Shown in pieces: positions 33,160-54,864 of a DNA stretch of 64,000 nt; within the stretch, counting starts at the first letter, position 1, and every line of letters starts with the position of its first letter. Origin of the DNA: Alphaproteobacteria bacterium (lineage in GTDB: Bacteria > Pseudomonadota > Alphaproteobacteria > GCA-2731375); NCBI GenBank assembly GCA_965232515.1, contig CBDDPY010000002.1, positions 1,856,001 to 1,920,000 of the forward strand, written 5' to 3'. The notes under the pieces are model-generated. The model did no database searches. It saw only the letters and a program-made list of their open reading frames with translations, and had not been told where the DNA came from. The translations under genes and the position numbers were made by a program.

Positions 33160-33975
33160 CTAACCGAACAGCGCGAGGATGGTCTGCGGTCCGGAGTTTG
33201 CGATGGCGAGCGACTGCACGCCGAGCTGCTGCTGGATCTGCAGCGACTGCAGCTTGGCGCTTTCGGCCGCCAGGTCGGCGTCGACCAGGTTGCCGACACC
33301 GGCCTTGAAGATGTCCTGCAGCTTGGTCGTGAACTCGGACTGCACTTCGATGCGCTTGGCCACCGAGCCGAGCGCCGCCAGCTTGTCCGACACCTTGGTG
33401 ATGGCGGTGTCGATGGCGGTGAGCGCGGTGGCGGCGTTGGCGCTGGAGGTCAGGTCCGAGGACGCGATGCCGAGCGTGCTGGAGTCCATCTTCTGGGCGC
33501 TGACGGCGATGGTCGAGCCGTCGACCGTGCTGAGCACCGAGGTCGCCGAGGCGCTGGTGTTGATCAGATTGGTGCCGTTGAAGTCGGCGGTGGCGACGAC
33601 GGTGGCGATCTGATCGCGCAGCGCGACGAAGTCGTTGTGCAGGGACGAGCGCGAGGCGCTGTCCAGGCCGGCCTGGTTGGCCTGCACGACCTTGGCCTTC
33701 ATTTCGGTCAGCAGGTCGCTGATCGACTGGCCGGCGGTGATGGCGACGTCGAGGGTGGCCTCGCCGTTGGCGAGCGCGGTCTTGACGGCGGTCATACCGG
33801 CGATGTCACCGCGCAGGTTCTGGGCGATGGCGTATGTCGCGGCGTCGTCTTTCGGGCCGCTGACCTTGAGGCCGGTGGTGATGGCGAGCTGGGTCTTCTC
33901 CAGCATCCGGTTGGTGCTGTTCAGGTTCTGCAGGGCGGCCATCGCGCCCCGGTTGGTGTTAATGGACAAAGTCAT
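33160..33975 (-). CDS. Flagellin 1 (short, Caulobacter Flj-like)
   Basis: SINTN.GA..ALQNL, I.TGLKV, GVGNLVDADLA.ES..LQSLQ.QQQLG.Q.L.IAN. Confidence 0.97.
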   Translation of the reverse strand: MTLSINTNRGAMAALQNLNSTNRMLEKTQLAITTGLKVSGPKDDAATYAIAQNLRGDIAGMTAVKTALANGEATLDVAITAGQSISDLLTEMKAKVVQANQAGLDSASRSSLHNDFVALRDQIATVVATADFNGTNLINTSASATSVLSTVDGSTIAVSAQKMDSSTLGIASSDLTSSANAATALTAIDTAITKVSDKLAALGSVAKRIEVQSEFTTKLQDIFKAGVGNLVDADLAAESAKLQSLQIQQQLGVQSLAIANSGPQTILALFG

Positions 33976-34051
33976 GGAACGAGCTCCTCATTCTGAAGCC
34001 ACAATCTCGCGTTTTGCGCGAGTCGACGCACATTGCGCCATGGCTTAGAGG

Positions 34052-34217
34052 AGCAACGACCGTACCAGAACTATGGCAAAGTTAGCCGATTGTTAAGACC
34101 GACTAACGCGCGGCAATACCTCTATATTCTTTATGAAGAATTCTTAGGCATTACACGGTGTAAACGGCAATTATTGCCGGGTAGGCAAATAATACCCATT
34201 TTCAGGCAAGATTTGCC
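34052..34217 (-). promoter_or_regulatory. Sigma54 promoter and ftr-like enhancers of flagellin 1
   Basis: Minus strand TGGTACGGTCGTTGC (34053-34067); GGCA-N5-TGCC at 34166-34178 and 34205-34217. Confidence 0.75.
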
Positions 34218-34334: not shown

Positions 34335-35150
34335 TTAGTTGAACAGGCCCAGAATCGTCTGCGGGCTCGAGTTAGCGATCGCAAGCGACTGGACACCAAG
34401 CTGCTGTTGGATCTGAAGCGACTGAAGCTTTGAGCTTTCGACCGCGAGATCGGCATCCACGAGGTTGCCGACACCCGCCTTCAGGATGTCCTGCAGCTTG
34501 ACGGTGAAATCGGACTGTATCTCAACTCGCTTGGCCACCGAGCCCAGCGCCGCCAGCTTGTCCGACACCTTGGTGATGGCGGTGTCGATGGCTGTGAGTG
34601 CGGTCGCCGCGTTGGCGCTCGAGGTCAAGTCGGACGAGGCGATACCCAGCGTGCTGGAGTCCATCTTCTGGGCGCTCACGGCAATGGAGCTCCCGTCGAC
34701 AGTGCTCAAGACACTGGTGCTCGTCGCGCTAGTGCCGATCAGGTTGGTGCCGTTGAATTCGGCCGTCGCCGCAATTGTCGCAATCTGGCTGCGCAATGCG
34801 TCGAAGTCGTTGTGCAGGGCGGTCCGCGAGGCGGAATCGAGCCCCGCCTGGTTGGCCTGCACGACCTTGGCCTTCATCTCCGTCAACAGGTCGCTGATCG
34901 ACTGGCCCGCGGTGATCGCCACATCAAGTGTGGCTTCGCCGTTCGCCAGTGCCGTCCTCACCGCCGTCATACCGGCGATGTCGCCACGCATGTTCTGCGC
35001 GATGGCATAGGTCGACGCGTCATCCTTCGGTCCGTTTACCTTCAGACCGGTAGTGATATTGAGCTGAGTCCTCTCCAGCATCTTGTTGGTGCTGTTGAGG
35101 TTTTGCAGGGCCGCCATGGCGCCCCTGTTGGTATTGATTGACAGTCCCAT
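34335..35150 (-). CDS. Flagellin 2
   Basis: Same flagellin terminal motifs; long stretches identical to flagellin 1. Confidence 0.97.
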   Translation of the reverse strand: MGLSINTNRGAMAALQNLNSTNKMLERTQLNITTGLKVNGPKDDASTYAIAQNMRGDIAGMTAVRTALANGEATLDVAITAGQSISDLLTEMKAKVVQANQAGLDSASRTALHNDFDALRSQIATIAATAEFNGTNLIGTSATSTSVLSTVDGSSIAVSAQKMDSSTLGIASSDLTSSANAATALTAIDTAITKVSDKLAALGSVAKRVEIQSDFTVKLQDILKAGVGNLVDADLAVESSKLQSLQIQQQLGVQSLAIANSSPQTILGLFN

Positions 35151-35222: not shown

Positions 35223-35339
35223 CGCAACAACCGTGCCAAGCGGCCTCAGGAAAGAGCCTCTAATCGTTTGATTTTATTGGATAAATTTTACCAGATCCCG
35301 ATCGACGGCGAGACCGGACGATGGCTGGCAAGAACTGCC
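35223..35339 (-). promoter_or_regulatory. Sigma54 promoter, IHF site and ftr-like site of flagellin 2
   Basis: Minus strand TGGCACGGTTGTTGC (35224-35238); AATCAA-ACGA-TTA IHF consensus (35261-35273); GGCA-agaac-TGCC (35327-35339). Confidence 0.85.
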
Positions 35340-35400: not shown

Positions 35401-36885
35401 TCAGGCCGCCAGCAGGGCCTGATCGGCCAGATCTTTCAGCGCCGCTGTCAACGCGGCGGCGGGATCGGCTTGATCGGCCATGACGGCCAGCAGTTCGCCG
35501 CGCTCGCGCTGACCGTCGAGCAACGGCAACAGCCGCAACGCCGGTCCGTCTTCCAGCGTGGCGACGTCATGGCGCAGGTTGGTAACGACGAAACCCAGCT
35601 GTTCCTGCAGAGCGGCGAGCCGGCTGGCCAGCGGCCGCCGCGACGCGCCGTCGCCCAGTTTCGGCGGGCAAAGCGAGAGCTCGATCAGGTTTCGCGTGCA
35701 GGCCCGCAGCAACGTGTTCTGCAGTTGGATCCGATCGGCCTCGCCCGGACTGGCGCCCAGCCGCGCGGCGGATGTGTTCAGCAAGGTTTGGAACGACGAC
35801 GCCCGGGGCCAGATCTCGGCCAGGTAATCGAATGCGGCCGCGACCATCGGCGTTTCGGCGTCGATCGCGTGGCCGTTGTCGCCGCGGAACCGGACGCCGT
35901 CGGCCGCCCCGTCCGGAGGCGTCGCCCGCAGCCGGCCGGCGATGTGAAATCCCGCAATACGGTCGGCCGTCAGGCGCCGGTCGATGGCAAGATCCTGATG
36001 GCAGAGCAGCGTCTGCCGAAAGGTCCGGTTGCTGACGAAATCGAGATATTGCTCCGCCCAGATCACGTCGCCGCTGGCGGCGGCCAACTGCGCCGTCTCC
36101 GGCGGATAGTTGTCGAGGATCGTCGCGCCCAAATTGGCCTCGCTCAAGTACTGCAGGCCATGCTCGGCCGCACGGGCGGCGAAATCGCTGAAATAGAGCG
36201 GCGCGTTGTGCGTCTCGAACATCTCGTGCGCGGCATAGAAATCAGGCAGTTCCTCGAGCAATTTCACTTCCTGATTCAGGAGCTGCCCATAGCTTTGGCG
36301 TGGATCCAGGTTCTCGTTCGCAAGCGTTCGCAGAAATGCGATGCCCTGGCGGACCCGCTCGCGCCGGTCGGCGATGTGTCGCACGTGAAACAACATCGCT
36401 TCCCGTGCCACCTGACGTTGCCGCCAGCCGGGAAAGGTGTTGTAGCTGATATAGGCGATGCCGTTGCCGTTCAGGTGGCGACGGCAGATGTCGAGAATTC
36501 GGTCCTGCACGGACGCCGGCACCCACGAGAACACGCCGTGTACGACGACATAGTCGAAGGTGCCGATCTCGTCGCCCAGATCCATCACGTCACGAGCCTG
36601 GAAGGCGATGTTGCCCAGCCCGAGCTCACCGGCCATGGTCTGGCCGGCGTTGATCTGGACGGCCGACAAGTCGATGCCGACGAACTGGCTGTCGGGCAGC
36701 CCCAGCGCCATGGGAATAAGATTGCCGCCGGTGCCGCAGCCAATCTCCAGCAGCCGGCAGTCGTCGGGCCTGGCCGGACTTTGGCCGAACAGGCTGGCAA
36801 GCGAAGCGATATGGTCGGGATGGGTGTGCCGCCAGGGCAGCGAAATCATCGGCAGGTCGTCATAGGCCGCGCCGATATCCTCCAT
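35401..36885 (-). CDS. SAM-dependent methyltransferase with methyltransferase-regulatory domain, Rickettsia PKMT-like
   Basis: YDDLP...THPD, LLEIGCGTGGNL, GIDLS, FDYVVVHGVFSWVP, YISYNTFPGW, HE..E..N.PLYF, EQYLDF..NR.FRQTLL; start set at MEDIG. Confidence 0.85.
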   Translation of the reverse strand: MEDIGAAYDDLPMISLPWRHTHPDHIASLASLFGQSPARPDDCRLLEIGCGTGGNLIPMALGLPDSQFVGIDLSAVQINAGQTMAGELGLGNIAFQARDVMDLGDEIGTFDYVVVHGVFSWVPASVQDRILDICRRHLNGNGIAYISYNTFPGWRQRQVAREAMLFHVRHIADRRERVRQGIAFLRTLANENLDPRQSYGQLLNQEVKLLEELPDFYAAHEMFETHNAPLYFSDFAARAAEHGLQYLSEANLGATILDNYPPETAQLAAASGDVIWAEQYLDFVSNRTFRQTLLCHQDLAIDRRLTADRIAGFHIAGRLRATPPDGAADGVRFRGDNGHAIDAETPMVAAAFDYLAEIWPRASSFQTLLNTSAARLGASPGEADRIQLQNTLLRACTRNLIELSLCPPKLGDGASRRPLASRLAALQEQLGFVVTNLRHDVATLEDGPALRLLPLLDGQRERGELLAVMADQADPAAALTAALKDLADQALLAA

Positions 36886-36913
36886 CTCGCCGTCCGTCCG
36901 GGGCTGCATGTGC

Positions 36914-36928
36914 TTAATCAATATTTAA
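36914..36928. promoter_or_regulatory. CtrA box upstream of the PKMT-like methyltransferase
   Basis: TTAA-tcaatat-TTAA, exact, 29 bp upstream of ATG 36885. Confidence 0.8.
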
Positions 36929-37051: not shown

Positions 37052-37390
37052 CTAGGCCGCGAGACCTTCCATGATCGAACGATTGACGTCGATCAGAGGG
37101 GCGATTTCCGCTTTGCCCTGAAGCACCATGCGCGAATGCTTGTCGACCCAAATGGCCAGCGAGATGATGCCGGCGCGCACTTCGTCGGGAAGCTGATTGT
37201 CATCGTTGGCGCAATCGGCCTGCAGCGTCAGCCACAGCCGACGGTTCCAGTGCACGGCTTTCTGCAGCGACAGGCTCTCGCCGTCTTGGGCATCCATCAG
37301 GGACTTCGTCACCTGCGCGAACAACCGGTATTCGGTCTTGCGCGGATCTTCAGTCGTGTTCAGAGCTGTCTGATAGCTATGGAGCGACAT
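37052..37390 (-). CDS. flaF: FlaF (copy 2)
   Basis: EDPR.TEYRLFAQVT, HWNRRLWLTL, IISLAIWV; overlaps the flbT stop. Confidence 0.93.
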   Translation of the reverse strand: MSLHSYQTALNTTEDPRKTEYRLFAQVTKSLMDAQDGESLSLQKAVHWNRRLWLTLQADCANDDNQLPDEVRAGIISLAIWVDKHSRMVLQGKAEIAPLIDVNRSIMEGLAA

Positions 37391-37775
37391 AATTCAACCT
37401 CACGTCCTCGAATTGAAATAGCTTCCGGCAACCAAGGAGAGCCTTGTAGTAATCCTTGCCGTGCACTAATTCGATGATATTCACGCATTGCGCTAACGCT
37501 TCGGCGTTGCTGATGGCGTTCATGAACTCGCCCATGCGCTGCACGAACTCGTCGTACAGCTGCTTGTCGGCCTTTTCGTCCATGTACATCATCATCACGG
37601 CGAAATAGATCCGACGCATCGGCGTGTTCGCCTGGTCGGGCAGCATGATGTCCTTCTCGCGAAGCAGCGCGGCCTTGTTCTGGATGACCAGCGTGGTCCG
37701 CCGGTCGCCGTTCTGCACGACAGCGCCGTTGATCAGGAACTTCTCGCCGGGTTTCAGCGTCAGCTTCAATGCCAT
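37377..37775 (-). CDS. flbT: Flagellin translational regulator FlbT
   Basis: MALKLTLKPGEKF.INGAVV.NGDRR, A.TP.RRIYF, YYKAL..CRKL..FE. Confidence 0.95.
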   Translation of the reverse strand: MALKLTLKPGEKFLINGAVVQNGDRRTTLVIQNKAALLREKDIMLPDQANTPMRRIYFAVMMMYMDEKADKQLYDEFVQRMGEFMNAISNAEALAQCVNIIELVHGKDYYKALLGCRKLFQFEDVRLNYVAP

Positions 37776-37822: not shown

Positions 37823-38635
37823 CTACTGGAACAACGCCAGGATATTCTGAGGCGCGGCGTTGGCAATCGACAACGCCTGGATGCCCAGCTGCTGCTTGGC
37901 CTGCAACGCCGTCAGATTGGCGCTTTCCTTGGCCATGTCGGCATCCACCAGGTTGCCGACGCCGGCTTTCAGGATATCCATCAGCTTGACCGTGAAGTCG
38001 CCCTGAATCTCCAGGCGCTTGCCGGCCGAGCCGAGGGCCGCCAGGCGTTCGTTCACCTTCACCAGAGCCGAGTCGATGGTGGTCAGGGCGGTCGCCGCCG
38101 TCGCGCTGGAGGTCAGCGACAACGTCGCGATACCCAACGTGCTGATGTCCATCTTCTGGGCGCTGACGGCGATGTTGCTGCCGTCAACGGTGCTCAGCAC
38201 CGACATGTTGACCGCGCTTTCGCCAATCAGGTTGGTGCCGTTGAACTCGGCCGTGGCCGCGATCGTGGCGATCTGATCGCGCAACGCGACAAAGTCGTTG
38301 TGCAACGCGGTCCGCGACACCGAGTCGAGACCGGCCTGGTTGGCCTGCACGACCTTGGCCTTCATCTCGATCAGCAGGTCGGAAATCGCCTTACCAGCGT
38401 CGATCGCGACGTTGACCGTCGATTCGCCGGCGGCGATCGCGGTCTTCACCGCCTTCATGCCGGCAATGTCACCACGCATGTTCTGCGCGATGGCGTAGGT
38501 CGAGGCATCGTCCTTCGGACCGTTGACCATCAGGCCCGTGGTGATGTTCAGCTGCGTACGTTCCAACGACTTGTTGGTCGTATTCAACTGTTGGAGCGCG
38601 ATCATCGCTCCGAGGTTGGTGTTAATAGACAGCAT
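37823..38635 (-). CDS. Flagellin 3 (more divergent copy)
   Basis: SINTNLGAMIALQQLN, GVGNLVDADMAKESA.L.ALQ.KQQLG. Confidence 0.97.
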   Translation of the reverse strand: MLSINTNLGAMIALQQLNTTNKSLERTQLNITTGLMVNGPKDDASTYAIAQNMRGDIAGMKAVKTAIAAGESTVNVAIDAGKAISDLLIEMKAKVVQANQAGLDSVSRTALHNDFVALRDQIATIAATAEFNGTNLIGESAVNMSVLSTVDGSNIAVSAQKMDISTLGIATLSLTSSATAATALTTIDSALVKVNERLAALGSAGKRLEIQGDFTVKLMDILKAGVGNLVDADMAKESANLTALQAKQQLGIQALSIANAAPQNILALFQ

Positions 38636-38708: not shown

Positions 38709-38869
38709 CGCAACCCATATGCCAGTTTCGGCGGGGATCTGAAAAATCGCCATAAGCCTCTGTTTTATCTATATTATTCCCCCTCAACGGCGGTGGCTTC
38801 GAGGTCCGCGGCGAACGCTGTCGGGCATGGTTAACGGGAAATTCTTGCCACCTCGCTGCAATCTTTGCC
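38709..38869 (-). promoter_or_regulatory. Sigma54 promoter and ftr-like sites of flagellin 3
   Basis: Minus strand TGGCATATGGGTTGC (38710-38724); imperfect GGCA-N5-TGCC at 38837-38849 and 38857-38869. Confidence 0.75.
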
Positions 38870-38896: not shown

Positions 38897-38912
38897 TTAA
38901 ACAGGTCTTAAC
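38897..38912 (+). promoter_or_regulatory. CtrA box upstream of the TPR-GT41 gene
   Basis: TTAA-acaggtc-TTAAC, full consensus, 24 bp before ATG 38936. Confidence 0.85.
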
Positions 38913-38935: not shown

Positions 38936-41683
38936 ATGGAGATCGCTGCGGATTCCTTTCGCGAGGCGCTGAAGGCGCACCGATCCGGCGACGTCGCGGC
39001 GGCGATGGCGCTTTACCGCCGCAGCGTCGTCGACGATCCGGACAACATCGATGCCTTGTTCAACCTCGCCGTCCTGACCGCGACGGTCGGGCGCATCGAT
39101 GAGGCCAAGGTCCTCTATGAACAGGTCTTGAGCCTGCGCCCGGACGAGCCGGACACCCTGGTCAATCTCGGCAACCTGATGCAGGCCGTGGGCCGGTCGG
39201 ACGAGGCCGAGGCCTACTATCGCCGCGCGTTGCTGGTGAAACCGACGCTGGCCGCGGCCAACGTCAACCTCGGCAGCCTGCTGCTCGCTCGCGGCGACTA
39301 CGAAGCGGCCATCCAGTCGTTTCAGCAGGCGCTGGCGATCGACCCCTGCCTGCCGCTCGCCATGAACGGGATGGCGGCCGCCTTGGTACGGCTCGACCGG
39401 CATGCCGAGGCCGTTCAACCTCTGGAAACCGCCATCGCGATCGATCCAACGCTTCTCGAGCCATGGCGCAATCTCGGGCTGGTCCTGAATCACCTCGGTC
39501 GCCCCGAACAGGCGCTCGACAAACTGAGCCAAGCCGAGCAGTGCAACCCGCAGGATGGCATGACCCAGGCGTTGATCGGTGACGCCCACTATCGGCTTAG
39601 CGATCTCAAAGCCGCCATCATCCATTTCCGCCGCGCCGTCGAGCTGGCCCCGCAGACGCCTCAGTTTCTGAACAATCTCGGCATGGCGCTTAACGACAAA
39701 GGCGATCATGACGAAGCGGCCGACGTGCTGCGTCAGGCATTGCGGATCGACCGGCGACAACCGGAGGCCTGGACCAATCTCGGTAACTGCCTGGTTCAGC
39801 TTGACCGGCCCGACGAAGCCATCGACAGCTACCGGGAAGCCCTGGCGCTGGCGCCCCAGCTCGGCGTTGCCGGCTGCAATCTCGGCAACACGCTTCGCAA
39901 TACGGGCCGCCTGGCGGAAGCCGCGGTGGCGTTTGAGCAGGCGATTGAGCATTCGCCCGGTCTCGCCATGGCCTATAACGGATTGGCGCTGGTCCGGCAG
40001 CAGGAAAACCAGAACGAACAGGCGGTCGAACTGCTGCGCAAGGCGGTGGAGATCAGGCCCGACTATCCCGAAGCGCTGAACAATCTCGCGATCTCCCTCG
40101 GCCACCTCAACCGCTTGCCCGAGGCCGTCGACGTGTACCAGCGTCTGTTGGACGTCAAACCGGACCTGCCGGAGGCGCTGTTCAATCTGGCCTCGCTGCT
40201 GCAGTCTTTGGGCCGGCACGACGAGGCGATCATGGCGTTGCGGCATTGCCTCGCCCTGCGGCCGGACTACCGGGTGATCTACCCATATCTCGCGCACAGC
40301 CTGATGCAGCAGTGCAGCTGGACCAATCTGGACGGCATCATCGGCAAGATCCGCCACAATATGGAGGCCGAGCTGGCCGAGGGGGTCGGCCTGTCGATCC
40401 CCGCGTTCGCCCTGCAGAGCCTGCCTGGGGAATTCCCCATGGAACTACGGCAGCGGGCGGCCGAACATATCGCCGGCCGGGCCGAGGCCGAGGTGGCCGA
40501 GACCTGTCGCCAGTTGCGTCTGGATCATCGGCGTCCGCCGGGCAGGCGCAAGTTGACGATCGGCTATGTCTCTCCGGACTTCCGGTTTCACAGCGTCGCC
40601 CTGGCGTTCCGGGGCATTCTGGAGAACCATGACCGGGACGCGTTCAATCTCATCGGCTATTCGCTGTTCAACGGCGCCGAGGACGACCTGACGCGGGAGT
40701 TCGAGCAGACTTTCGACGGCTTTCGGCGGATCACCGACACGCCCTACCGCGAAACGGCCGAGCTGATCGACCGCGACCGGGTCGACATCCTGATCGATCT
40801 TGCCGGCCACACCCTTGGCTCGCGACTGCCGATTTTCGCACTCCGCGCGGCCCCGCTGCAGGCACACTATCTCGGCTACTCCGCGACCGTCGGCGCCAAA
40901 TTCCTCGACTACCTCATTACCGATCATGCGCAAGTGCCGCCGGAAAACCGGCAATACTTCACCGAGCAGTTGGTCTATCTGCCGGACACGTTCATGGCGA
41001 CGCAGCGGGCGCCGGTCGCCGTCCACCGGCCAAGCCGGCACGATTGCGGCCTGCCCGAGGACGGCATCGTGTTCGCCAACTTCAATTCTCACTACAAGTT
41101 CGACCCGCACCTGTTCGCGATCTGGATGCGCCTGCTGCGACAGTCGCCCGGCAGCGTTCTTTGGCTACTGGCGGGAACGCCGGGCTGCGTCGCCAACCTG
41201 CAGCGCGAAGCCGCCGCGCGGAACGTCGATCCGGCACGGCTGGTGTTCGCGCCGAAGATCACCCATCCGGAGCACCTGGCCCGGCTGCCGTTGGCCGACC
41301 TGGCGCTCGACAATCTCTATCACGGCGGCGGCGTAACCACCGTCGATGCGCTGTGGACCGGCGTGCCGGTGCTGACAATCGCCTCGCAGACGCCACAGTC
41401 GCGCAACGGCGCCACCCTGATCACCGCCATTGGGCTCGCGGACCTGATCGTCCACAGCGTTGACGACTATGAACGCCTTGCCCTGAAAATCGCCGGCGAC
41501 CCGGCTCTGCGCCAATCGCTGCGGGACCGGCTGGTCGCCAATCGGGACAGCTATCCGCTGTTCCGGCCCAAACGTCTGACACGGCATCTGGAGCAGGGCT
41601 ATCGGCTGATGTGGCGCAATCATGTCGACGGCCGGCCGCCGGCCATGATCGACGTCCCGGCGCTGCCGGAAGAACCGACCTGA
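38936..41683 (+). CDS. TPR-repeat GT41 (OGT/SPINDLY-family) protein glycosyltransferase
   Basis: About a dozen TPRs (NLG..L...G...EA...Y..AL...P), then IGYVSPDFRFHSV, DILIDLAGHT, APLQAHYLGY, FANFNSHYK, SVLWLL, TTVDALWTGVP. Confidence 0.92.
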   Translation: MEIAADSFREALKAHRSGDVAAAMALYRRSVVDDPDNIDALFNLAVLTATVGRIDEAKVLYEQVLSLRPDEPDTLVNLGNLMQAVGRSDEAEAYYRRALLVKPTLAAANVNLGSLLLARGDYEAAIQSFQQALAIDPCLPLAMNGMAAALVRLDRHAEAVQPLETAIAIDPTLLEPWRNLGLVLNHLGRPEQALDKLSQAEQCNPQDGMTQALIGDAHYRLSDLKAAIIHFRRAVELAPQTPQFLNNLGMALNDKGDHDEAADVLRQALRIDRRQPEAWTNLGNCLVQLDRPDEAIDSYREALALAPQLGVAGCNLGNTLRNTGRLAEAAVAFEQAIEHSPGLAMAYNGLALVRQQENQNEQAVELLRKAVEIRPDYPEALNNLAISLGHLNRLPEAVDVYQRLLDVKPDLPEALFNLASLLQSLGRHDEAIMALRHCLALRPDYRVIYPYLAHSLMQQCSWTNLDGIIGKIRHNMEAELAEGVGLSIPAFALQSLPGEFPMELRQRAAEHIAGRAEAEVAETCRQLRLDHRRPPGRRKLTIGYVSPDFRFHSVALAFRGILENHDRDAFNLIGYSLFNGAEDDLTREFEQTFDGFRRITDTPYRETAELIDRDRVDILIDLAGHTLGSRLPIFALRAAPLQAHYLGYSATVGAKFLDYLITDHAQVPPENRQYFTEQLVYLPDTFMATQRAPVAVHRPSRHDCGLPEDGIVFANFNSHYKFDPHLFAIWMRLLRQSPGSVLWLLAGTPGCVANLQREAAARNVDPARLVFAPKITHPEHLARLPLADLALDNLYHGGGVTTVDALWTGVPVLTIASQTPQSRNGATLITAIGLADLIVHSVDDYERLALKIAGDPALRQSLRDRLVANRDSYPLFRPKRLTRHLEQGYRLMWRNHVDGRPPAMIDVPALPEEPT

Positions 41684-43234: not shown

Positions 43235-43257
43235 ATGACCTCTCCGCGGACTTGGCC

Positions 43258-46953: not shown

Positions 46954-47962
46954 TCGGTAGACCCCCGTTCTTCCGCCGTGCCAGCGACAGCATCGCTTCT
47001 GCCTTGGCTAACTGCCGGTCGAGCGCCGCCGCGTGGCCGGCCTTACCGGCGAACGCGCGCCGGGCCCAACGCTCCGGCAGAAACTCGTTCAATAGGATCA
47101 GGCACCAGCGCAGGGCGAACAGTGGATAGACCTGGCGCAGCCGTTGCTCGAAGGCCGGATCGCCGGCGAAGATCTCGGCTGCGCCGCGGTGGAAGCGGCG
47201 TTTCAGCTCATCGCTCAATGCCATGCCAGGATGCAGCAGGAAGTCGGACACCAGCTTCGCCGGATCGTCCCAGCCGAAATACTCGAAGTCGAGAAACACC
47301 AACCGGCCGTCCGCGGTGCGCAGCGCGTTGTGCAGCCCGAAATCCGACGGCGACAGCGTTCGCTGCGTCTGAGCCAGCTCGGCCTCGATATCGACATCGT
47401 CCGGCGTTGCCTCGGCCAAGGCGGCATCGAAGCCGTCGGCCAGGAAGCTTTGCACGCGCGTATCCTCCACGGCCGCCAGACGCCGCCGCCGTCGGGCGAT
47501 CTGCCGCAGGCAGTCGCCGATGGAGAGGCACGCCTCGGAGGCAAGCGGCAGGCGATCGGCGCCCGGCACCGTCGCCAGCGCTTTCAGCCGCGCCATGAAG
47601 TCGAGCGCGGCGTCGACGTCGGCGACGCCGGGCGTCGACACCGGTTGACCGTCGACCCATTCGTAAAGCGCGACGCTGCGATCGCGGTCGACCGCCACGC
47701 GCCGCGGCACGTCGCGAACGCCTTGCAGCCACAGGAAACGCAGGCCACCGAACTCCGCGCCCAGACGGTCACGCTCGTCGATCCGGTCGTTCAGGTATTC
47801 CTTCAGGGCGTAGCGGCGGCCGCCCAGGTCCTCGACCTGGTAGATACGGTTGTTGCCGCCGCCGCCGACACGCTCGACGGCGTAGACGGCGTCGTCGAGC
47901 AGGCGAGCCGCAATGTCGCGCAGATCATCGGTGTCTGCGTCAGTGGACGGAGCCAAGGACAT
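46943..47962 (-). CDS. APH/choline-kinase-fold phosphotransferase
   Basis: GGGNNRIY, ALKEY, SPSDFGLHN, FLDFEYFGWDDP. Confidence 0.85.
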   Translation of the reverse strand: MSLAPSTDADTDDLRDIAARLLDDAVYAVERVGGGGNNRIYQVEDLGGRRYALKEYLNDRIDERDRLGAEFGGLRFLWLQGVRDVPRRVAVDRDRSVALYEWVDGQPVSTPGVADVDAALDFMARLKALATVPGADRLPLASEACLSIGDCLRQIARRRRRLAAVEDTRVQSFLADGFDAALAEATPDDVDIEAELAQTQRTLSPSDFGLHNALRTADGRLVFLDFEYFGWDDPAKLVSDFLLHPGMALSDELKRRFHRGAAEIFAGDPAFEQRLRQVYPLFALRWCLILLNEFLPERWARRAFAGKAGHAAALDRQLAKAEAMLSLARRKNGGLPNDA

Positions 47963-48557
47963 GATCGGTTATCTCGTTCCAATTGCTGAAGCGCGTCAGG
48001 CCGCATTCGGCCGACTGCGCGTGTGGGTCGAACAGAAGCCGCGCGACCTCGGCAGGAAAGCCGGGGTCGGCGAAGACTTCCCTAAGGTCGTCGATGAAGT
48101 GCGTGCAGCCGAGGCCGCCGATCCGGGCGATCTTCTCGGCCCGGCAGTCCTCGAAAAAGACCTGGGTCTCGTTCAGGCCCAGACCGTCGATGTCGAAGAA
48201 ACGGTGCGCGTCCATCCAGGCAAGCGCGGCTTCCCGCAGATCGACATTTCCGTCGTCCAGGCTGGCGAAACGGGTCTTGTGGCTGACGATGTAAACATCG
48301 ATGCCGTCGGCGCGGCAGCGGCGGAAGAACGCGTCGGCGCCGTCGAACATCTCGGCCTCGGCCATGTGCGGGCCATAGGCCAACGCCTGTAGGCGCTGCC
48401 AGTCCAGATCGCCGTCGGGGCGTTGGCGCAACCGATCGCGCACCGCCCGCTTGCCGCCGGCCGGAACGGCGTCCAGATAGCCGCATGCCACCGCCAACCG
48501 GCCGAAAACCCGGTCATAGCCCGCGATTGTGTTGTCGAAATCCACGCCCAGGCGCAT
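47940..48557 (-). CDS. HAD-superfamily hydrolase
   Basis: GVDFDNTI (DxD), VSHKT, K..RI, FIDDL. Confidence 0.85.
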   Translation of the reverse strand: MRLGVDFDNTIAGYDRVFGRLAVACGYLDAVPAGGKRAVRDRLRQRPDGDLDWQRLQALAYGPHMAEAEMFDGADAFFRRCRADGIDVYIVSHKTRFASLDDGNVDLREAALAWMDAHRFFDIDGLGLNETQVFFEDCRAEKIARIGGLGCTHFIDDLREVFADPGFPAEVARLLFDPHAQSAECGLTRFSNWNEITDHVLGSVH

Positions 48558-48693: not shown

Positions 48694-49698
48694 CTAGTGC
48701 AGGTCGAGCGACTGCATGCGTTTGACGTTGTAGTAGACCTCGCCCGTCATCGGGTCGGGCACGCGGCCGGCCGCGAAGGCATCACGCAGGCTCTGCACCG
48801 CGTCCGCGATGCTATGCCGCGGCACGAATCCGAGCTCATCGGCAATCTTCTGCGAGTTCACGCGGTACGAACGGTGATCGTCGGTCGGCGTTGTCACGAT
48901 CTCGACCGCCTGGCCAACGTTGTCGCGCACCATCTCGGCCAGCTCCATCACGGCGTGGTTCTCGTAGCCGGCGTTGAAGACCTTGCCGTCGATCGCGGCG
49001 TCCGGATACTGCAGGCACTGGACATAGAGGTCGGTCATGTCCTCGACATTGATGTTCGGCCGCTGCTGCCCGCCGCCGAACACTGTGATCCGGCCGTTGT
49101 TGATGGCGTGGTTGGTCAGGATGTTGACCGTCAGGTCCAGCCGCAGCCGCGGCGCGTAGCCGCAGACCGTCGCCGGCCGCAGCGTCAGGGCGGTGAAGCC
49201 GGGCTCGCGTTCGGCCTCCAGCACCTCCTCGCACATCGCCTTGAACTTGGAATAGTCGGTCAACGGCTCCAGCGACAATTCCTCGGTGACGTCGGCCTCG
49301 TCCTTGATGCCGTAAACGCTGGACGACGACGCGTAGATGAAGCGTTTGACGCCCGCGTCCTTCGCCGCCTTCACCATGGGCCGGAAGGCCTCGAAGTTGA
49401 TTGACCGACCGAGGTCCGGATCGAGCTCGAAGCTCGGATCGTTGGAAATGCACGCGAGATGGATCACCGCGTCGCAGCCCGTGAGCGCGTTCCGTACGGC
49501 GGCGATGTCGCGGATGTCGCCCCGGACCTTGCGCAGTTTCGGATGCGCGTCGCAACCGTTGAACACGTCGGTGCCATAGATGAAGAGATCGAGCACCGTG
49601 ACCTCATGGCCGGCATCGAGCAGTTTCGGCACCAGGCAGCTGCCGACATAGCCGGCGCCGCCGGTCACCATCACGCGCCAGTGCTTGTGTTCGGACAT
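48694..49698 (-). CDS. NAD-dependent NDP-sugar epimerase/dehydratase
   Basis: VTGGAGYVGS, HLACISNDP, ASSSSVYG, YSKFK; start at MSEHK overlapping the upstream stop. Confidence 0.92.
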   Translation of the reverse strand: MSEHKHWRVMVTGGAGYVGSCLVPKLLDAGHEVTVLDLFIYGTDVFNGCDAHPKLRKVRGDIRDIAAVRNALTGCDAVIHLACISNDPSFELDPDLGRSINFEAFRPMVKAAKDAGVKRFIYASSSSVYGIKDEADVTEELSLEPLTDYSKFKAMCEEVLEAEREPGFTALTLRPATVCGYAPRLRLDLTVNILTNHAINNGRITVFGGGQQRPNINVEDMTDLYVQCLQYPDAAIDGKVFNAGYENHAVMELAEMVRDNVGQAVEIVTTPTDDHRSYRVNSQKIADELGFVPRHSIADAVQSLRDAFAAGRVPDPMTGEVYYNVKRMQSLDLH

Positions 49699-50306
49699 CA
49701 CGCCGCGCCTTTCCTGCTCCACAATCCCGCGTCCGCCGTCCAGCCCATGGCGATATCAAGGATCGCGTGGCAGACGATCTGGTGCATCAGCTCGACAAAG
49801 CCGTATTCCTCGGACGGTACATAGAAGTTCAAATCGCCCAGCCGGCGCAGCTTGTTGTCCGGGCCGAAGCCGCTCAGGCCGATGACGGTGCAACCGGCCT
49901 CGCGCGCCGCGCTGACGCCGTTGACGATGTCGGCCGAGTTGCCCGAACTGGAGATCGCGAACAGCACATCGCCCGGACGGCCGTGCAGCTCGATCTGCTG
50001 GGCGAAAATCTGATCGAAGCCAAAGTCGTTGCCCAGGCAGGTCAACGCCGCGCCATCGTTGAAGACCAACGCCGGGATGCCGCCGTTCTTGGCAAAGTCA
50101 TTCGCCATATGGCTGGCGATCGCGGCGCTGCCGCCATTGCCGATGAACATCAGCTTGTGCCCCCGACCGGCCGCCTCCTGCGTCAGCTCGATGGCGGCGT
50201 CGATAAAGCCCGCCATCGGCAGCCGGTCGCCCTCGCGGTCGGTGCTGACGGAACGGTCCGGCAGCTCGGCCAGGATGCGGAAATAGCTCTCCACGTCACT
50301 CTGCAT
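49698..50306 (-). CDS. SIS-domain phosphoheptose isomerase (GmhA-like)
   Basis: FIGNGGSA.IASH, ND.G....F..Q, ISSSGNS, YG.VE..H. Confidence 0.88.
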   Translation of the reverse strand: MQSDVESYFRILAELPDRSVSTDREGDRLPMAGFIDAAIELTQEAAGRGHKLMFIGNGGSAAIASHMANDFAKNGGIPALVFNDGAALTCLGNDFGFDQIFAQQIELHGRPGDVLFAISSSGNSADIVNGVSAAREAGCTVIGLSGFGPDNKLRRLGDLNFYVPSEEYGFVELMHQIVCHAILDIAMGWTADAGLWSRKGAA

Positions 50307-50314: not shown

Positions 50315-51895
50315 TCACTTCAGCAGCGCGGTCAGGAACTTCATCAGCGGCACCTTCGCCACCGACTCGCGATGGCCGACGATGCCGACCTTCATGGCGC
50401 CGACGGCGTTGCCGATCAGTCCCGCGACCGGCATGTCGGTGCCGTTGGCGACCAGCGGCGCGGTGACGCTCAGGAAGGCATCGCCGGCGCCGACGGTGTC
50501 GACCACCTGCCGCGTGAACGCCGGCACCTTGTGCAAACCGGTCTCCAGGTCGAAGGTCAGGCAGCCGTTCTGGCCATGGGTGACGACGATGCGGTCGCAG
50601 TCGATCTGCTCGCGTAGCGGCCCTTGGACCAGACGGCCGAGATCGGTGAAACGGTCGCGCACCGCCAGCCGCGCCTCGGGCGCGTCGATACAGACATAGT
50701 CGGCGCGGCGATAGCGCGTCACCGGGTTATAGCCCAGGTTGGCGCTGTTGCTCTGCGCGTTGACGGCCAGGAACGGCGCCGCGTCGACGACCACGTCGAC
50801 CGCCCGCGGCGTCATCATGCCGTGGCCGAAATCGTTCACGATGGTCAGATCGAATTCGTGCGCCAGGTCGCCGATCTGCTGGCATAGCGTGTCTTCCTGG
50901 GCGCCCGACAGCGGCGTGTCGTCGAAGTGGTAGACCTCGAACAGCTTGCGCATATGGCCGGGATCGACGAACCGGCATTTCCGGATCGTCGGCACACCCG
51001 GCAGGCGCAGGAAATGCAACTGCACGTTGTCGCGCACCGAATCCCGGATGAGGTCCTCGTGGCTGTCGTCATCGCCGATGCAGGTGACGACGTCGACCTG
51101 CTCGACGAAGTCGGCGATATGGTTGGCCGAGGCGATCACGCCGCCGGCGAACATCTCCCGCCCCTCGTACCGGGTGGCGATGATGTTCTCCTTGGCCGAT
51201 TTGCCCATCGGCGCGGTGTACTGGTATTCGTCGACGATGGCCTCGCCGACCATCAGCACCCGCTTGTCGGCCAGCGCCTCGATCGCCGCCAGCGCCTTCG
51301 CCTGACCGCCGCTGTCGCGCATGCGGGCGAGGTACTCGGCGACTTCCGAGTCGTAGACGTTCAGATGCCGGTTGATCAGCGCCGAGGACGAAAAGGTGAT
51401 GTCGTCGGTAAAGACGATGCGGCCGCCCAACCCCTCGACCAGCTCACGCTCGCGGCGGATGTTGCCGGTGACGTCCTCGGTCTCGTCGGCGTAGTCCTGG
51501 CCCTTGATATAGACATCCGGCGCGACCATGCGCAGGACACCCTCGGCCGTGGGCCAGTTGCTGACGCCGACCCAGTCGACATATTCCAGCGCCGCCAACA
51601 TCTCCGCCCGCATGTCCTGGGCGAATACCGGCCGGCCCGGCCCCTTGTTCACGTAACGGTCCGCCGTCAGCGTGACGAACAGCAGATCGCCCTCCGCACG
51701 CGCGGCTTCCAAATGGCGGACATGGCCCATATGCAACAAATCGAAAACACCGTGGGCCAGGACAACGGTCTGGCCGCGCTGCCGGGAGTGCTTGGCAATC
51801 GCGGCCATCTCCTCGATCGTTCTGACTTTGTCCCGCGCGCGCACGGGCAACGGATCGAGCGATGCGAGGTTGGCCTGAACTCCTGATTGCACCAT
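50315..51895 (-). CDS. Bifunctional nucleotidyltransferase + PfkB kinase (HldE-like, reversed domain order)
   Basis: N-terminal HGVFDLLHMGH and KGPGRP; C-terminal DTVGAGDAF; start at MVQSG after a GGGAG RBS. Confidence 0.9.
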   Translation of the reverse strand: MVQSGVQANLASLDPLPVRARDKVRTIEEMAAIAKHSRQRGQTVVLAHGVFDLLHMGHVRHLEAARAEGDLLFVTLTADRYVNKGPGRPVFAQDMRAEMLAALEYVDWVGVSNWPTAEGVLRMVAPDVYIKGQDYADETEDVTGNIRRERELVEGLGGRIVFTDDITFSSSALINRHLNVYDSEVAEYLARMRDSGGQAKALAAIEALADKRVLMVGEAIVDEYQYTAPMGKSAKENIIATRYEGREMFAGGVIASANHIADFVEQVDVVTCIGDDDSHEDLIRDSVRDNVQLHFLRLPGVPTIRKCRFVDPGHMRKLFEVYHFDDTPLSGAQEDTLCQQIGDLAHEFDLTIVNDFGHGMMTPRAVDVVVDAAPFLAVNAQSNSANLGYNPVTRYRRADYVCIDAPEARLAVRDRFTDLGRLVQGPLREQIDCDRIVVTHGQNGCLTFDLETGLHKVPAFTRQVVDTVGAGDAFLSVTAPLVANGTDMPVAGLIGNAVGAMKVGIVGHRESVAKVPLMKFLTALLK

Positions 51896-52104
51896 GTCCC
51901 ACTCTCCCTGACGCGCGACGGCGCCGGCGTTGGGCACGACTGTGGCGGGACGGGTCTTAATAACGGGTAAAATGCCGCTAAATCCCACGCCAATTTTTCA
52001 ATCCGCGTTAACCATGTCCTTGCACCGGACGTTAACGGCGTGCCGCCAGGATGGGCCACCGAAAAGGCCAACCGCGGCAAGGAACAGATTGGATTTCCGG
52101 GGTC

Positions 52105-54864
52105 ATGAACGGCATCAACGGCACCAACGGCGGGTTAACCATCGCCTTCTTCGACACGTCCGTGCTGGCCGACTATTACGCGGCCGGCGCGAACCTGAGC
52201 GAAGTGACGCTGCGCAAGACCTTCGAGGCCCAGGGTCTGAACAGCAGCATCAACAGGGGCGACGCCGCCGTCATCCCGCCATGGGAAGCGCCGCCGCAGG
52301 AAGCGCCCGAAGATCCGCTCGAGAGCATCTTCTCGTCCGGTCCGCTGATCGATCTCGACGACCCGCTGGTCGCCAACGCCGGCGACGACGAGAACTTCAA
52401 GAACCTGTTCGCGCTCTACCGCGGCCTGTCGCGCGTCACCGAGCTCACCGAGTTCGCCCGGACCGATCCCCGGGCCGAGACCATGCGGACGCTGCTGGAC
52501 CGCAAGCTGCAGGACTACATCACCGAGATCGAAAGCTTCGTTGCCAAGCTCGATCTGGACGACGTCACCGTGGTTCAGGGGCTGAAGGAGAGCGACCTCA
52601 CCTCGACGCTGTTCCTGGCGAAGGAAGTCGCGAAGACCTCGCCCGTACATTTCGGCGCCGTCGTCTCGGAGGTCCGCGACGACGCCATCCCGGGCCTCAC
52701 CGGCACCGAGAAGTTCACCATCACCGCCACCACGTCGGGCGGTACCAAGAATGTGAGCATTGATCTCAGCGCGGTCAGCGGCACACTCAACGTCGACAAC
52801 ATCTCCAGCTACATCAACAGCCAGCTCGCCGCCAACAGCGTCACCTCGACGGTCAATGTCGAGCGCACCAACGAATTCGCCTACGGCTTCCGGGTCAACA
52901 TGTCGACCACGGAGACGCTGACGTTCAGCGCCGACGCGGCCAGCGAGTCGCCGGCCGTCTATCTCGCCGGCACCAGCGGCTTCGGCGACAATTCGAACGG
53001 TTATCTGCTCAAGCTGGACGATCTCGGCGCCGCCAGCCCGAACCAGGTCTTCCGCACCAACATCGATACCACGGCGGCCGACTCGGCCAACGCCGTCGCC
53101 GTCGACAGCAAGGGCTTCGCCTACACCGTCGGCAGCACCGGTGGCGACATCGGCACCCAGACCAACAACGCCAGCGAAGACGTCTATCTGCGCAAGTACG
53201 ACGCCGCCGGCGTGCTGATCTGGTCGCGCCTGCTGGGCGCCACCGACCAGGCCAACGGCTTCTCTGTCGCGGTCGACGCCAACGACAACATCATCGTCGG
53301 CGGCCAGACCAACGCGCCGCTCAGCGACACGGCGATCGGCGGCGGCTACGACACCTTCGTGACCAAATACAACAGCAACGGCGACGAGCAGTTCACCCGT
53401 CAGTTCGCGCCGATATCCGATGACGCCGCGCTCAGCGTCACCGCCAATGCCGCCGGCGAGATCTTCATCGCCGGTTACGCGAAAGGCACGGTCGGGACCG
53501 GCACCACCCACAACGGCGGCGCCGACGCCTATGTCACCAAGCTCGATGCCAGCGGCAACCTGCTCTACAACAAGCAGTTCGGCGGCAGCGGCGACGACCG
53601 CGCCACCGGCATCGCCATCGACGCGTCGGGCAACATCTTCGTCGCCGCGGAAAGCGACGGCAACGCGGTCTTGCGCAAATACGCCGACAGCGACGCCAGC
53701 CAGACGCCGATCTGGGAAGCGAACCTCGGCGCCATCGGCAGCGACGGCACGGTCGCCGGCCTCGCCATCGGCAGCAACGGCAATGTCTATGTCACCGGCA
53801 GCACCAGCAACGGATCGCTGAACGGCAGCGTCGCGCAGGCTCATTCCGGCGGCGTCGACTCCTTCGTCAGCCAGATCACCGACAACGGCACCAGCGCGAC
53901 GCTCGGCTTCGTCTCTTATGTCGGCAGCAGCGGCACGGATCGGGCCGGCGGCATCGCCGTGCGCCCGAACGCGGGCGCCGACGAGATCTATATCACCGGC
54001 AACACCGACGGATCGGTCGCCGGCCAGGCCTCGGTCGGCGAGACCGACGCTTTCGCCGTCAAGGTCAACAGCAGCGGCACGACGGTATGGGGCCACCAGT
54101 TCGGCGGCGGCTTCAACCACAGCGGCAACGCCATCGCCTTCGACGAAAACGGCACGTCAGTGCTGTCGCGGCTCGGCCTTCCGGGCGGCACGCTGCCGTT
54201 GTCGCCGCCCGAGGAGGTCATCAACCTCACCTCCGCGCGGCCGGGTCAGTATTTCGAGATTTCGGTCGACGGCGCGTCGTCGCGGCGCGTCACCATCGAG
54301 AACGACGACAGCCTCGGATTCCTCGCCTTCAAGATCAACCGCATCCTGGGCGACGCCGGCCGGGCGACAATCGAAAACGAGATCGACGGCCGGGTGATCA
54401 AAATCGAGGCCAAGAACGAAAAACGCATCGACATTATCGCCGGCGCCGACGGCTTCAACGCGCTGGCTCCGCTCGGCCTGCGCGAGGTTACGCTGTTCGG
54501 CGAGCCACTGGTCGAAGACGAGGATGAAGAGCTCTTCGATCTGGGCGACCGCGTCGACAGCGACGACGACACGGAGGAGAGCGGCAACGCCTCCGTGTTC
54601 GCGCTGGGCATCATCGACGGCCTTAACGTCAAGACCAAGCAGGCCGCGGAAGATGCCGGCGTGATCTTCGACGAGGCCCTGCGCAATGTCCGCGAAGCCT
54701 ATAAGTTCATTACCGATACCGGCGAGACAACAAACAACTTCCTGGCCGGCGCGCAGCAGATCAGCGCCGCCGACCAGGCCAAGATCAATGAGCTGAACTT
54801 CGCGCTCGAACGCCTGCAGTCGGCCAGCCTGAACAGCAGTAGCGCGATCTCGCTGTTGACCTGA
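52105..54864 (+). CDS. FlaY/FlaEY-like secreted beta-propeller (SBBP-repeat) flagellar protein
   Basis: No signal peptide; N-terminal FD.S.L..YY...PPW; repeated AVD..GN.YV.G.T...GG.D.FV.K.D..G units; helical C-terminus ending ISLL. Confidence 0.7.
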   Translation: MNGINGTNGGLTIAFFDTSVLADYYAAGANLSEVTLRKTFEAQGLNSSINRGDAAVIPPWEAPPQEAPEDPLESIFSSGPLIDLDDPLVANAGDDENFKNLFALYRGLSRVTELTEFARTDPRAETMRTLLDRKLQDYITEIESFVAKLDLDDVTVVQGLKESDLTSTLFLAKEVAKTSPVHFGAVVSEVRDDAIPGLTGTEKFTITATTSGGTKNVSIDLSAVSGTLNVDNISSYINSQLAANSVTSTVNVERTNEFAYGFRVNMSTTETLTFSADAASESPAVYLAGTSGFGDNSNGYLLKLDDLGAASPNQVFRTNIDTTAADSANAVAVDSKGFAYTVGSTGGDIGTQTNNASEDVYLRKYDAAGVLIWSRLLGATDQANGFSVAVDANDNIIVGGQTNAPLSDTAIGGGYDTFVTKYNSNGDEQFTRQFAPISDDAALSVTANAAGEIFIAGYAKGTVGTGTTHNGGADAYVTKLDASGNLLYNKQFGGSGDDRATGIAIDASGNIFVAAESDGNAVLRKYADSDASQTPIWEANLGAIGSDGTVAGLAIGSNGNVYVTGSTSNGSLNGSVAQAHSGGVDSFVSQITDNGTSATLGFVSYVGSSGTDRAGGIAVRPNAGADEIYITGNTDGSVAGQASVGETDAFAVKVNSSGTTVWGHQFGGGFNHSGNAIAFDENGTSVLSRLGLPGGTLPLSPPEEVINLTSARPGQYFEISVDGASSRRVTIENDDSLGFLAFKINRILGDAGRATIENEIDGRVIKIEAKNEKRIDIIAGADGFNALAPLGLREVTLFGEPLVEDEDEELFDLGDRVDSDDDTEESGNASVFALGIIDGLNVKTKQAAEDAGVIFDEALRNVREAYKFITDTGETTNNFLAGAQQISAADQAKINELNFALERLQSASLNSSSAISLLT

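Follow-up and report, generated by a model that had tools for sequence, protein, structure and literature searches.

The region at positions 33160–54864 of a 64,000-nucleotide (nt) window of an alphaproteobacterial genome is probably a flagellin glycosylation island, in which an OGT-type glycosyltransferase of family GT41 would work with a heptose-derived donor supplied by a converging operon of twelve genes. The window, the whole stretch of DNA that was analysed, is G000:C2:1856001-1920000 of a genome of 7.39 Mb in 4 contigs. Gene content, gene order, co-occurrence among relatives, motifs and conserved His and Lys residues carry this reading, and substrate, donor, chemistry and regulation are predicted from them. 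The island continues the flagellar region at 10994–33065, which lies immediately before it and which, in a profile search of the window, is filled by genes for FlhB, FliR, FliQ, FliE, an FlgC-like protein, FliP, MotB, FliM, FliL, FlgF, FlgG, FlgA, FlgH, DksA, FliX, FlgI, a rod-binding protein and the first of two FlaF proteins. An earlier note, made from the sequence, had described a dual flagellin-modification system here, and all of its gene coordinates hold in the window.

Two sets of relatives provide the comparisons below, in which G stands for a genome, L for a locus, and g2, g3, g5 and g6 for genera. The GTDB order of G000 comprises 33 genomes in one family and 8 genera, with G000 and G036 forming the genus of the window; all 33 are kin, and co-occurrence counts among them are suggestive and not a test. 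A scan of metagenome-assembled genomes (MAGs), one genome per species, gave 14 true orthologue loci of the GT41 protein of the window (type A), 38–84% identical to it and labelled Alphaproteobacteria, Sneathiellales, Rhodospirillaceae or MarineAlpha2, while 4 additional matches covered only the tetratricopeptide repeats (TPR) and are not counted as orthologues. The carriers found are uncultured or little-studied marine-type Alphaproteobacteria.

The TPR-GT41 Transferase and the Flagellins

The transferase gene and the flagellin genes with their companions are the following (aa, amino acids).

38936..41683, plus strand: type-A TPR-GT41 protein of the OGT/SPINDLY family, 915 aa, candidate flagellin O-glycosyltransferase (PF13844 and OGT matches)
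37823..38635, minus strand: flagellin 3, 270 aa, divergent from the GT41 gene (Flagellin_N and Flagellin_C)
37377..37775, minus strand: FlbT (PF07378, 1.8e-45)
37052..37390, minus strand: FlaF, second copy (PF07309, 4e-35)
34335..35150, minus strand: flagellin 2, 271 aa (Flagellin_N and Flagellin_C)
33160..33975, minus strand: flagellin 1, 271 aa (Flagellin_N and Flagellin_C)
32643..33065, minus strand: FlaF paralogue, first copy, downstream of flagellin 1 (PF07309, 1.2e-34)

The 915-aa protein has a C-terminal Glyco_transf_41 domain (PF13844, 244.1 bits against a cut-off of 25) preceded by an N-terminal TPR array (TPR_1, 250.5 bits; many TPR models over residues about 8–460), and it matches human OGT with E ~1e-120 (7ntf), SPINDLY with 3.5e-81 (7y4i) and XcOGT with 2e-63 (2vsn), so that the TPR-GT41 transferase which the earlier note placed beside the flagellins is indeed there. 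It has no intervening domain. By its sequence it is a full OGT/SPINDLY homologue, for which sugar transfer to Ser or Thr is predicted. Across 23 type-A orthologues (44–84% identity), H552, K721 and the H796..T801-T802 motif are invariant, together with 140 further columns. H552, in 'DFRFH', aligns with 'DFGNH' of human OGT, and K721, in 'NFNSHYKFDP', with 'NFNQLYKIDP'; the aligned His and Lys are the catalytic residues of the human enzyme. Invariance of this extent is a pattern that fits a working enzyme. The position of the gene beside flbT and flaF might instead suggest a protein that is mainly a regulator or a chaperone-like flagellin binder, acting with FlbT and FlaF and inactive as a transferase; with the OGT His and Lys in place and 140 columns held invariant among the orthologues, this is very improbable. 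A complex prediction for the TPR arm (residues 1–470) with flagellin gave a score of 0.00 and counts neither way. The order contains three TPR-GT41 orthogroups, and G000 itself holds two TPR-GT41 paralogues besides type A.

All three flagellins are short and rich in Ser and Thr, as had been claimed for them. The two residues together make up 20.7, 21.0 and 15.9% of flagellins 1, 2 and 3, and they are concentrated in residues 121–180, where they occupy 21, 23 and 17 of 60 positions. A second copy of flagellin 1 lies at C2:1182991-1183845 (L033:8034-8849), remote from the flagellar cluster and between an amidohydrolase gene and a PAS_5 gene; the two copies share 857 nt at 98.8% DNA identity and their proteins are 100% identical.

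Conserved Linkage of GT41 and Flagellin Genes

Type-A GT41 occurs in 21 of the 33 genomes of the order, and in 17 of these 21 it divergently adjoins a flagellin-flbT-flaF group (G000, G036, G043 and 14 of the 17 fetched loci). Among the remaining type-A loci, those of G028, G037 and G044 are cut by contig ends and that of G038 is not adjacent. The MAG set repeats the arrangement, with flagellin-flbT-flaF divergently upstream of GT41 in 8 of the 9 loci that have enough flank, the exception being L017. Linkage in homologous loci, which had been proposed as a check, is what these counts report, and the conserved divergent gene order supports a tie between the OGT-type GT41 and flagellin. At one locus, L156 (G041:C31:77059-96378), three tandem TPR-GT41 genes adjoin flagellin-flbT-flaF.

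The Twelve-Gene Sugar Cluster

Twelve minus-strand genes at 41703–51988 run towards the GT41 gene, and the two facing stop codons are 19 nt apart. They are given here in the order of transcription.

50315..51988, minus strand: HldE-like fusion in reversed order, with an N-terminal nucleotidyltransferase and a C-terminal PfkB kinase
49698..50306, minus strand: GmhA-like sedoheptulose-7-phosphate isomerase, below the equivalog cut-off (TIGR00441, 104.5 vs 209.45)
48694..49722, minus strand: SDR epimerase/dehydratase (PF01370, 4.5e-39)
47940..48557, minus strand: HAD-superfamily phosphatase-like protein, 205 aa, putative GmhB-like role (Atlas 0.93, motifs)
46943..47962, minus strand: APH-family kinase-like protein, 339 aa, no Pfam match (Atlas 0.99, motifs)
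46093..46953, minus strand: split transketolase, N-terminal subunit binding thiamine diphosphate (profile match)
45145..46089, minus strand: split transketolase, C-terminal subunit (profile match)
44321..45148, minus strand: TIGR04324 2-oxoglutarate (2OG)-Fe(II) oxygenase (310.2 bits vs cut-off 150)
43924..44328, minus strand: TIGR04323 'sporadic carbohydrate cluster' protein (142 bits vs cut-off 55)
43258..43920, minus strand: class I methyltransferase 2 (profile match)
42554..43321, minus strand: class I methyltransferase 1, start uncertain, overlapping the adjacent methyltransferase gene by 63 nt as listed
41703..42545, minus strand: RmlD-like reductase of nucleoside diphosphate (NDP) sugars, start approximate (PF04321, 3.2e-26)

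In profile and Atlas searches none of the twelve genes matched a glycosyltransferase, Wzx/Wzy, flippase or exporter family (0/12), which agrees with the earlier description of a cluster without a transferase or exporter of its own. The HldE-like fusion, like the GmhA-like isomerase, scores below the equivalog cut-offs (108 vs 345 for TIGR02198 and 109.5 vs 181.5 for TIGR02199), and because the heptose-type genes of the window all fall below these cut-offs they form a second, diverged set. Elsewhere G000 has GT9 genes, a second GmhA and a canonical HldE that passes the cut-off with 346.8 bits and has an SDR gene beside it, so that the heptose of lipopolysaccharide (LPS) has its own genes.

The other members of the cluster are less familiar. 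The APH-like protein has 27 of its 30 Atlas matches in PF01636-type clusters and keeps the motifs SDFGxHN and DFEYFGWDDP; the HAD-like protein, for which there is no Pfam match and which Atlas places in NT5C clusters, keeps its DxDxT and DD motifs in 18 of 18 sequences. The best solved relative of the split transketolase is the split transketolase of Carboxydothermus (8.3e-61). The model of the TIGR04323 protein (pLDDT 92.5) has a resolvase-like alpha/beta fold (Foldseek E 4e-4, TMq 0.62–0.69), a likeness to the catalytic domain of serine recombinases and resolvases that gives no chemistry, and R8, G9, Y10 and S13 are invariant near its N-terminus. Such a fold is odd for a sugar operon. Literature searches returned nothing on the TIGR04323/TIGR04324 'sporadic carbohydrate cluster', nothing relevant, among the papers listed, on flagellin glycosylation with transketolase and heptose, and no flagellin-modifying GT41 enzyme from Alphaproteobacteria; to our knowledge, the cluster has so far had neither a product nor an acceptor assigned to it.

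Sugar genes follow GT41 in 11 of the 12 MAG loci that have enough downstream flank. Four of these loci, here called short-type, have just the five late genes beside GT41 (RmlD-like, the two methyltransferases, TIGR04323 and TIGR04324), and all four genomes (4/4) have an HldE-like orthologue, 64–67% identical, located elsewhere. Within the order the operon adjoins GT41 only in G000, G036, G043 and G044. The TIGR04324 marker is present in 22 of the 33 genomes, and its co-occurrence with type-A GT41 divides them into 19 with both, 2 with GT41 only, 3 with the sugar marker only and 9 with neither. Of the last nine, G015, G030 and G033 likewise show no flagellin at E<=1e-30, the flagellins of G013 and G014 are about 60% identical, and G022, G023, G027 and G029 give weaker or partial matches. 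The earlier note had suggested a co-occurrence search that includes these genes, and the counts, together with adjacency in many MAGs, support a tie between the heptose-type pathway and GT41.

CtrA-Type and Sigma-54-Type Promoter Elements

Two kinds of promoter element stand before the genes of the island.

38897..38911, unstranded: exact TTAA-N7-TTAA (CtrA-type box), 24 nt upstream of the GT41 ATG
36914..36928, unstranded: exact TTAA-N7-TTAA, 4 nt upstream of the ATG of a methyltransferase gene described below
38710..38724, minus strand: sigma-54-type box TGGCAT-N5-TTGC, 74 nt upstream of flagellin 3
35224..35238, minus strand: sigma-54-type box TGGCAC-N5-TTGC, 73 nt upstream of flagellin 2
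34053..34067, minus strand: sigma-54-type -24/-12 box TGGTAC-N5-TTGC, with one mismatch, upstream of flagellin 1

Exact TTAA-N7-TTAA sites number 3 in the window against 0.04 expected from shuffles, and 46 in the genome, where base composition would predict about 5.7; G000 encodes a CtrA orthologue (426.7 bits vs a cut-off of 350). A box upstream of GT41, exact or with one mismatch, is found 39–107 nt before the gene in 9 of 11 related loci, exact at -39 or -40 in 2 of the 11 and with one mismatch at -45 to -107 in 7. In the AT-rich locus L022, boxes with one mismatch stand at about -90 and an exact one lies further upstream. CtrA control of the GT41 gene is predicted from this motif. Each of the four short-type loci also has an exact site about 100 nt ahead of its five-gene late operon (L012:18312, L013:18280, L015:7495 and L018:19040; in L012, the annotated one, just downstream of scpB), and the intergenic region between the hldE-like gene and its divergent neighbour has one-mismatch boxes in the window and in genus g3. 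The earlier note had put boxes on both modifying enzymes, and both exact sites exist; the one before GT41 is conserved, but the one before the methyltransferase gene (36914–36928) is not kept in the closest relative, L010. The third exact site of the window, at 14560–14574, lies between divergent flgB-like and fliP genes, a position expected for early flagellar promoters under CtrA.

The sigma-54-type -24/-12 boxes precede all three flagellin genes (3/3) by 73–78 nt, two of them exact and one with a mismatch. With a CtrA-type box on GT41 and sigma-54-type boxes on the flagellins, the enzyme would be made before its substrates.

Proposed Mechanism and the Source of the Donor

In the proposed mechanism, the TPR-GT41 protein would most likely work in the cytoplasm before flagellin export. 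The short flagellins would be bound by its TPR arm and would receive a sugar from its OGT-like GT-B domain, on Ser or Thr of the exposed stretch at about residues 120–180. The donor would be a nucleotide-activated, heptose-derived sugar from the converging twelve-gene operon, in which the GmhA-like isomerase, the HldE-like kinase/nucleotidyltransferase and the HAD phosphatase may lead to an NDP-heptose that the SDR, the RmlD-like reductase, the two methyltransferases, the 2OG oxygenase, the split transketolase, the APH-type kinase and the TIGR04323 protein could then tailor. The CtrA-boxed transferase would be made ahead of the sigma-54-boxed flagellins, as in Caulobacter. A methyltransferase of the protein lysine methyltransferase (PKMT) type, a genus-specific insertion among the flagellin genes, may methylate flagellin lysines, and this is the weakest link of the scheme. 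The earlier suggestion of a methylated or oxidised higher-carbon sugar is still an inference. Stated in full, the proposal is that the TIGR04323/04324 cluster makes a methylated, oxidised heptose-derived or transketolase-extended (C8/C9) sugar nucleotide for a flagellin-O-glycosylating enzyme of the OGT family, with the PKMT adding lysine methylation in this genus; in this complete form it is put forward tentatively, as possible and rather less than probable.

Several points weigh against a heptose-type flagellin glycosylation island. The 'GHTT' loop of human OGT reads 'GGVTT' in the type-A protein. L017 carries a type-A-like GT41 without flagellin or sugar genes around it, and G044 has GT41 and the sugar cluster and no flagellin at E<=1e-30, its GT41 gene lying 707 nt from a contig end. 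Transferase and marker are discordant in G028 and G037, which have type A only, and in G018, G024 (partial) and G039, which have the marker only. The cluster lies among housekeeping genes, away from GT41 and flagellin, in genera g3, g5 and g6, and 184 kb from GT41 on the same contig in G016. L011 has no CtrA box upstream of GT41. As the 33 genomes are kin, the co-occurrence table overstates their independence. We know of no flagellin glycan for this lineage and of no experiment.

The donor of the type-A enzyme could also be one of the common nucleotide sugars. UDP-GlcNAc, GDP-fucose or UDP-glucose serves as donor for GT41 enzymes elsewhere, and this, together with the two GT41 paralogues of G000, makes such a donor possible. 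GT41 would then glycosylate flagellin with, for example, UDP-GlcNAc, and the operon would feed another glycoconjugate through a transferase encoded elsewhere, the LPS O-antigen, a capsule or another protein such as the SBBP propeller encoded next to the operon being candidates. This would agree with the canonical His and Lys aligned with those of human OGT, with the detachment of the cluster from GT41 and flagellin in the three genera just named, with its steady neighbour, the SBBP gene (the window and 7 loci), and with its being catalogued as a 'sporadic carbohydrate cluster' under TIGR04323/04324. It accords poorly with the adjacency of cluster and GT41 in nearly all MAG loci with flank, with the 19/2/3/9 co-occurrence, with a cluster that has no transferase, flippase or exporter, with the separate genes for LPS heptose, and with the presence of the SBBP gene in g2 genomes that are without the cluster. 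On this balance a common donor with a separately employed operon is unlikely, and flagellin glycosylation with a heptose-derived donor from the operon is preferred.

Comparison with Known Systems

A close parallel is FlmG of Caulobacter crescentus and Brevundimonas subvibrioides, to which a likeness of mechanism is proposed here and no shared class membership. FlmG is described as a TPR and GT-B protein whose TPR part binds flagellin and which is under CtrA control (PMC7591256). As far as these accounts go, the two systems share an N-terminal TPR arm with a C-terminal GT-B domain (PMC7591256, 10.1101/2022.03.25.485807), an alphaproteobacterial host that has FlbT/FlaF and makes several short flagellins, a CtrA-type promoter element for the transferase and a later promoter class for the flagellins, and O-glycosylation in the cytoplasm, which is expected here. 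They differ, on a comparison by description, in that FlmG has 596 aa and transfers pseudaminic or legionaminic acid (Pse/Leg), whereas the protein of the window is a clear GT41 of 915 aa accompanied by a heptose-type pathway. PF13844 has a match in the Caulobacter control genome, and the best 120 of 5936 GT41 relatives bear generic names only.

Human OGT, Arabidopsis SPINDLY and Xanthomonas XcOGT share the TPR and GT41 domains and the His and Lys motifs with the type-A protein, XcOGT being likewise without an intervening domain, and are set apart from it by the presumed flagellin substrate, the heptose-type donor and the altered 'GHTT' loop. The flagellin glycosylation islands of enterobacteria that carry GT41 genes resemble the present one in having a GT41 enzyme in a flagellin-linked sugar island, often with methyltransferases, as a prediction only (De Maayer and Cowan 2016, PMC4875605). 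Those islands lie between fliC and fliA and are read as GlcNAc-type, and no heptose or transketolase is named in that paper (PMC4875605). The Ogt of Synechococcus elongatus is, by its description, a precedent for a bacterial GT41 homologue that modifies a filament subunit, although the substrate is a pilin (10.1101/2021.07.06.449578), and the TibC-type autotransporter heptosyltransferases are one for O-heptosylation of a secreted protein, although TibC is not a GT41 enzyme and has another substrate (PMC4358343). With the ADP-L-glycero-beta-D-manno-heptose pathway (GmhA, HldE, GmhB, HldD) the operon shares a SIS isomerase, a PfkB kinase with a cytidylyltransferase-like nucleotidyltransferase, a HAD phosphatase and an SDR; it differs in the sub-equivalog scores of its GmhA- and HldE-like members, in the reversed fusion, in seven more tailoring genes and in the presence of a canonical HldE elsewhere.

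If the proposal is right, a heptose-type donor would here be found for a GT41 enzyme for the first time, the OGT family would accept a wider range of donors, and FlmG and Maf would be joined by a third way in which Alphaproteobacteria glycosylate flagellin. If the link between cluster and transferase holds, a widespread, uncharacterised sugar gene cluster would gain an acceptor and a transferase. Glycosylation of flagellin affects filament assembly and motility as well as phage attachment and host recognition, and a modular system of TPR arm, GT-B domain and separate donor pathway could be compared with FlmG for acceptor and donor specificity. It would also show whether a timing of modifier and substrate with CtrA first and sigma-54 later is general outside Caulobacter. 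Since the carriers are uncultured or little studied, heterologous reconstitution would be the way in.

The PKMT-Type Methyltransferase

Between flagellin 2 and the flaF-flbT-flagellin 3 group lies the methyltransferase gene already mentioned.

35401..36909 (open reading frame to 36921), minus strand: candidate PKMT-type class I methyltransferase, 502 aa from the likely ATG at 36909 (PF10119, PF21782)

Its product matches PF10119 with 84.7 bits (cut-off 25.5) and PKMT_2nd (PF21782), the C-terminal winged helix of PKMTs, with 38.1 bits (cut-off 27.8), and all 18 NCBIfam families that gave a match are of class I methyltransferases, no FliB model having been searched by name. A flagellin-linked PKMT is found in 2 of the 33 genomes of the order, both of the genus of the window (2/2). 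The other PKMT homologues of the order are 36–41% identical to it, as is the G000 paralogue at 3.54 Mb, which lies among unrelated genes and to which the window-type copy is 38% identical; no flagellin stands within 1.5 kb at any of these other loci. Of the 12 genomes from which the MAG loci come, seven carry a PKMT, and only the congeneric one is flagellin-linked. A metagenome scan found no close PKMT relatives among 176 stretches matching a search pattern.

The earlier note had this enzyme act on flagellin. The gene, its domains and its position are as described, but the arrangement is restricted to one genus, its box is not conserved, and the single lysine in flagellin residues 121–180 stands in an alignment column that is not conserved. 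Flagellin as the substrate of the PKMT rests on gene position in one genus, and with the gene in a flagellin locus in that genus only and the box not conserved, flagellin lysine methylation by the PKMT is weakly supported. There is an even chance that the lysines which the enzyme methylates belong instead to a large surface or outer-membrane protein, its place here being a chance insertion. Substrates described for the family are OmpB and the adhesin AtaA (PMC11784438), and the narrow distribution of the linkage, the other PKMT loci without flagellin nearby, the paralogue at 3.54 Mb among unrelated genes, the single non-conserved lysine and the absence of the box in L010 all fit a surface substrate. 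On the other side stand the position between flagellin genes in both genomes of the genus, the divergence of the window copy from the widespread paralogue (38% identity), as expected after a change of function, and flagellin lysine methylation as described from other bacteria (PMC3765264, PMC8598068). Among described enzymes, Rickettsia PKMT1/PKMT2 and Acinetobacter KmtA share the class I S-adenosylmethionine domain, PF10119 and PKMT_2nd with the protein of the window, and differ in that their known substrates are outer-membrane proteins (PMC11784438), while Salmonella FliB shares the location in a flagellin locus and differs in being a [4Fe-4S] enzyme of another family (PMC8598068).

A GC-rich hairpin (GGGGCCGCGCCGG ... 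CGGCGCGGCCCC) at 36930–37050, between flaF and the PKMT gene, is kept in L010. From its sequence it looks like a terminator isolating the PKMT gene from the flaF transcript.

The SBBP Gene and a Second Sugar Island

The island is closed by a gene divergent from that of the HldE-like fusion.

52051..54864, plus strand: SBBP beta-propeller protein, 937 aa, without an evident signal peptide

The label 'FlaY-like' that the earlier note had given to this gene was not confirmed. Among the matches listed, the named homologues are called 'SBBP repeat-containing' or 'hypothetical' and carry PF27198, and the SBBP model had no match in the Caulobacter control genome. In the window and 7 related loci the SBBP and HldE-like genes point away from each other. 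The SBBP gene occurs in 25 of the 33 genomes of the order, including those of genus g2, which is without the operon; in G038 and G040 it lies far from the sugar operon.

A second sugar island, G000:C2:6685001-6722000 (L031, L032), follows flgD, fliK, flgK and an flgL-like gene, with the ctrA gene about 15 kb away. It encodes a LegB-like SDR, a type-C TPR-GT41 of 887 aa, a B12-radical-SAM enzyme, RmlD-like and Glf-like proteins, NeuB-like and PseF-like proteins, a class III aminotransferase, methyltransferases and a 630-aa TPR protein (L032:7113-9005). The C-terminal domain of the latter has no Pfam match, and its model (pLDDT 78.4) has an MptE/Maf/CstII-type fold, with Z values of 11.6 to 8sd5, 11.0 to Maf 5mu5 and 9.2–9.5 to CstI/II; in all of G000, PF01973 (MptE-like/MAF_flag10) has 0 matches. 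The NeuB-like genes, at 4.07, 4.09 and 6.71 Mb, are all outside the window. The earlier statement that no Pse/Leg pathway, FlmG or Maf is recognisable is therefore true of the window but not of the genome, where NeuB-, PseF- and LegB-like genes and a Maf/CstII-like fold stand beside flgD-fliK-flgK-flgL. A nonulosonate-type route to flagellar glycosylation is probably also present in G000, and with such an island beside flgK and flgL the heptose-type chemistry would be additional and not a replacement.

Further Observations

Searches of the window for sigma-70 promoter-like sites (2 vs 2.8 expected from shuffles) and for terminator-like sites (13 vs 12.9) showed no excess. In run X4, RNA-library contigs 95–99% identical to the window span 30 of 30 bins of 33000–52900, so that a close relative is present in those libraries. 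One of these contigs bridges the divergent flagellin and GT41 starts, with strand, start and level unreadable; it may stem from DNA carry-over, from which transcription is not separable. Downstream of the SBBP gene, on the same strand, 54934–57245 holds a second APH-family kinase gene, with a weak match to methylthioribose kinase, and an enolase gene.

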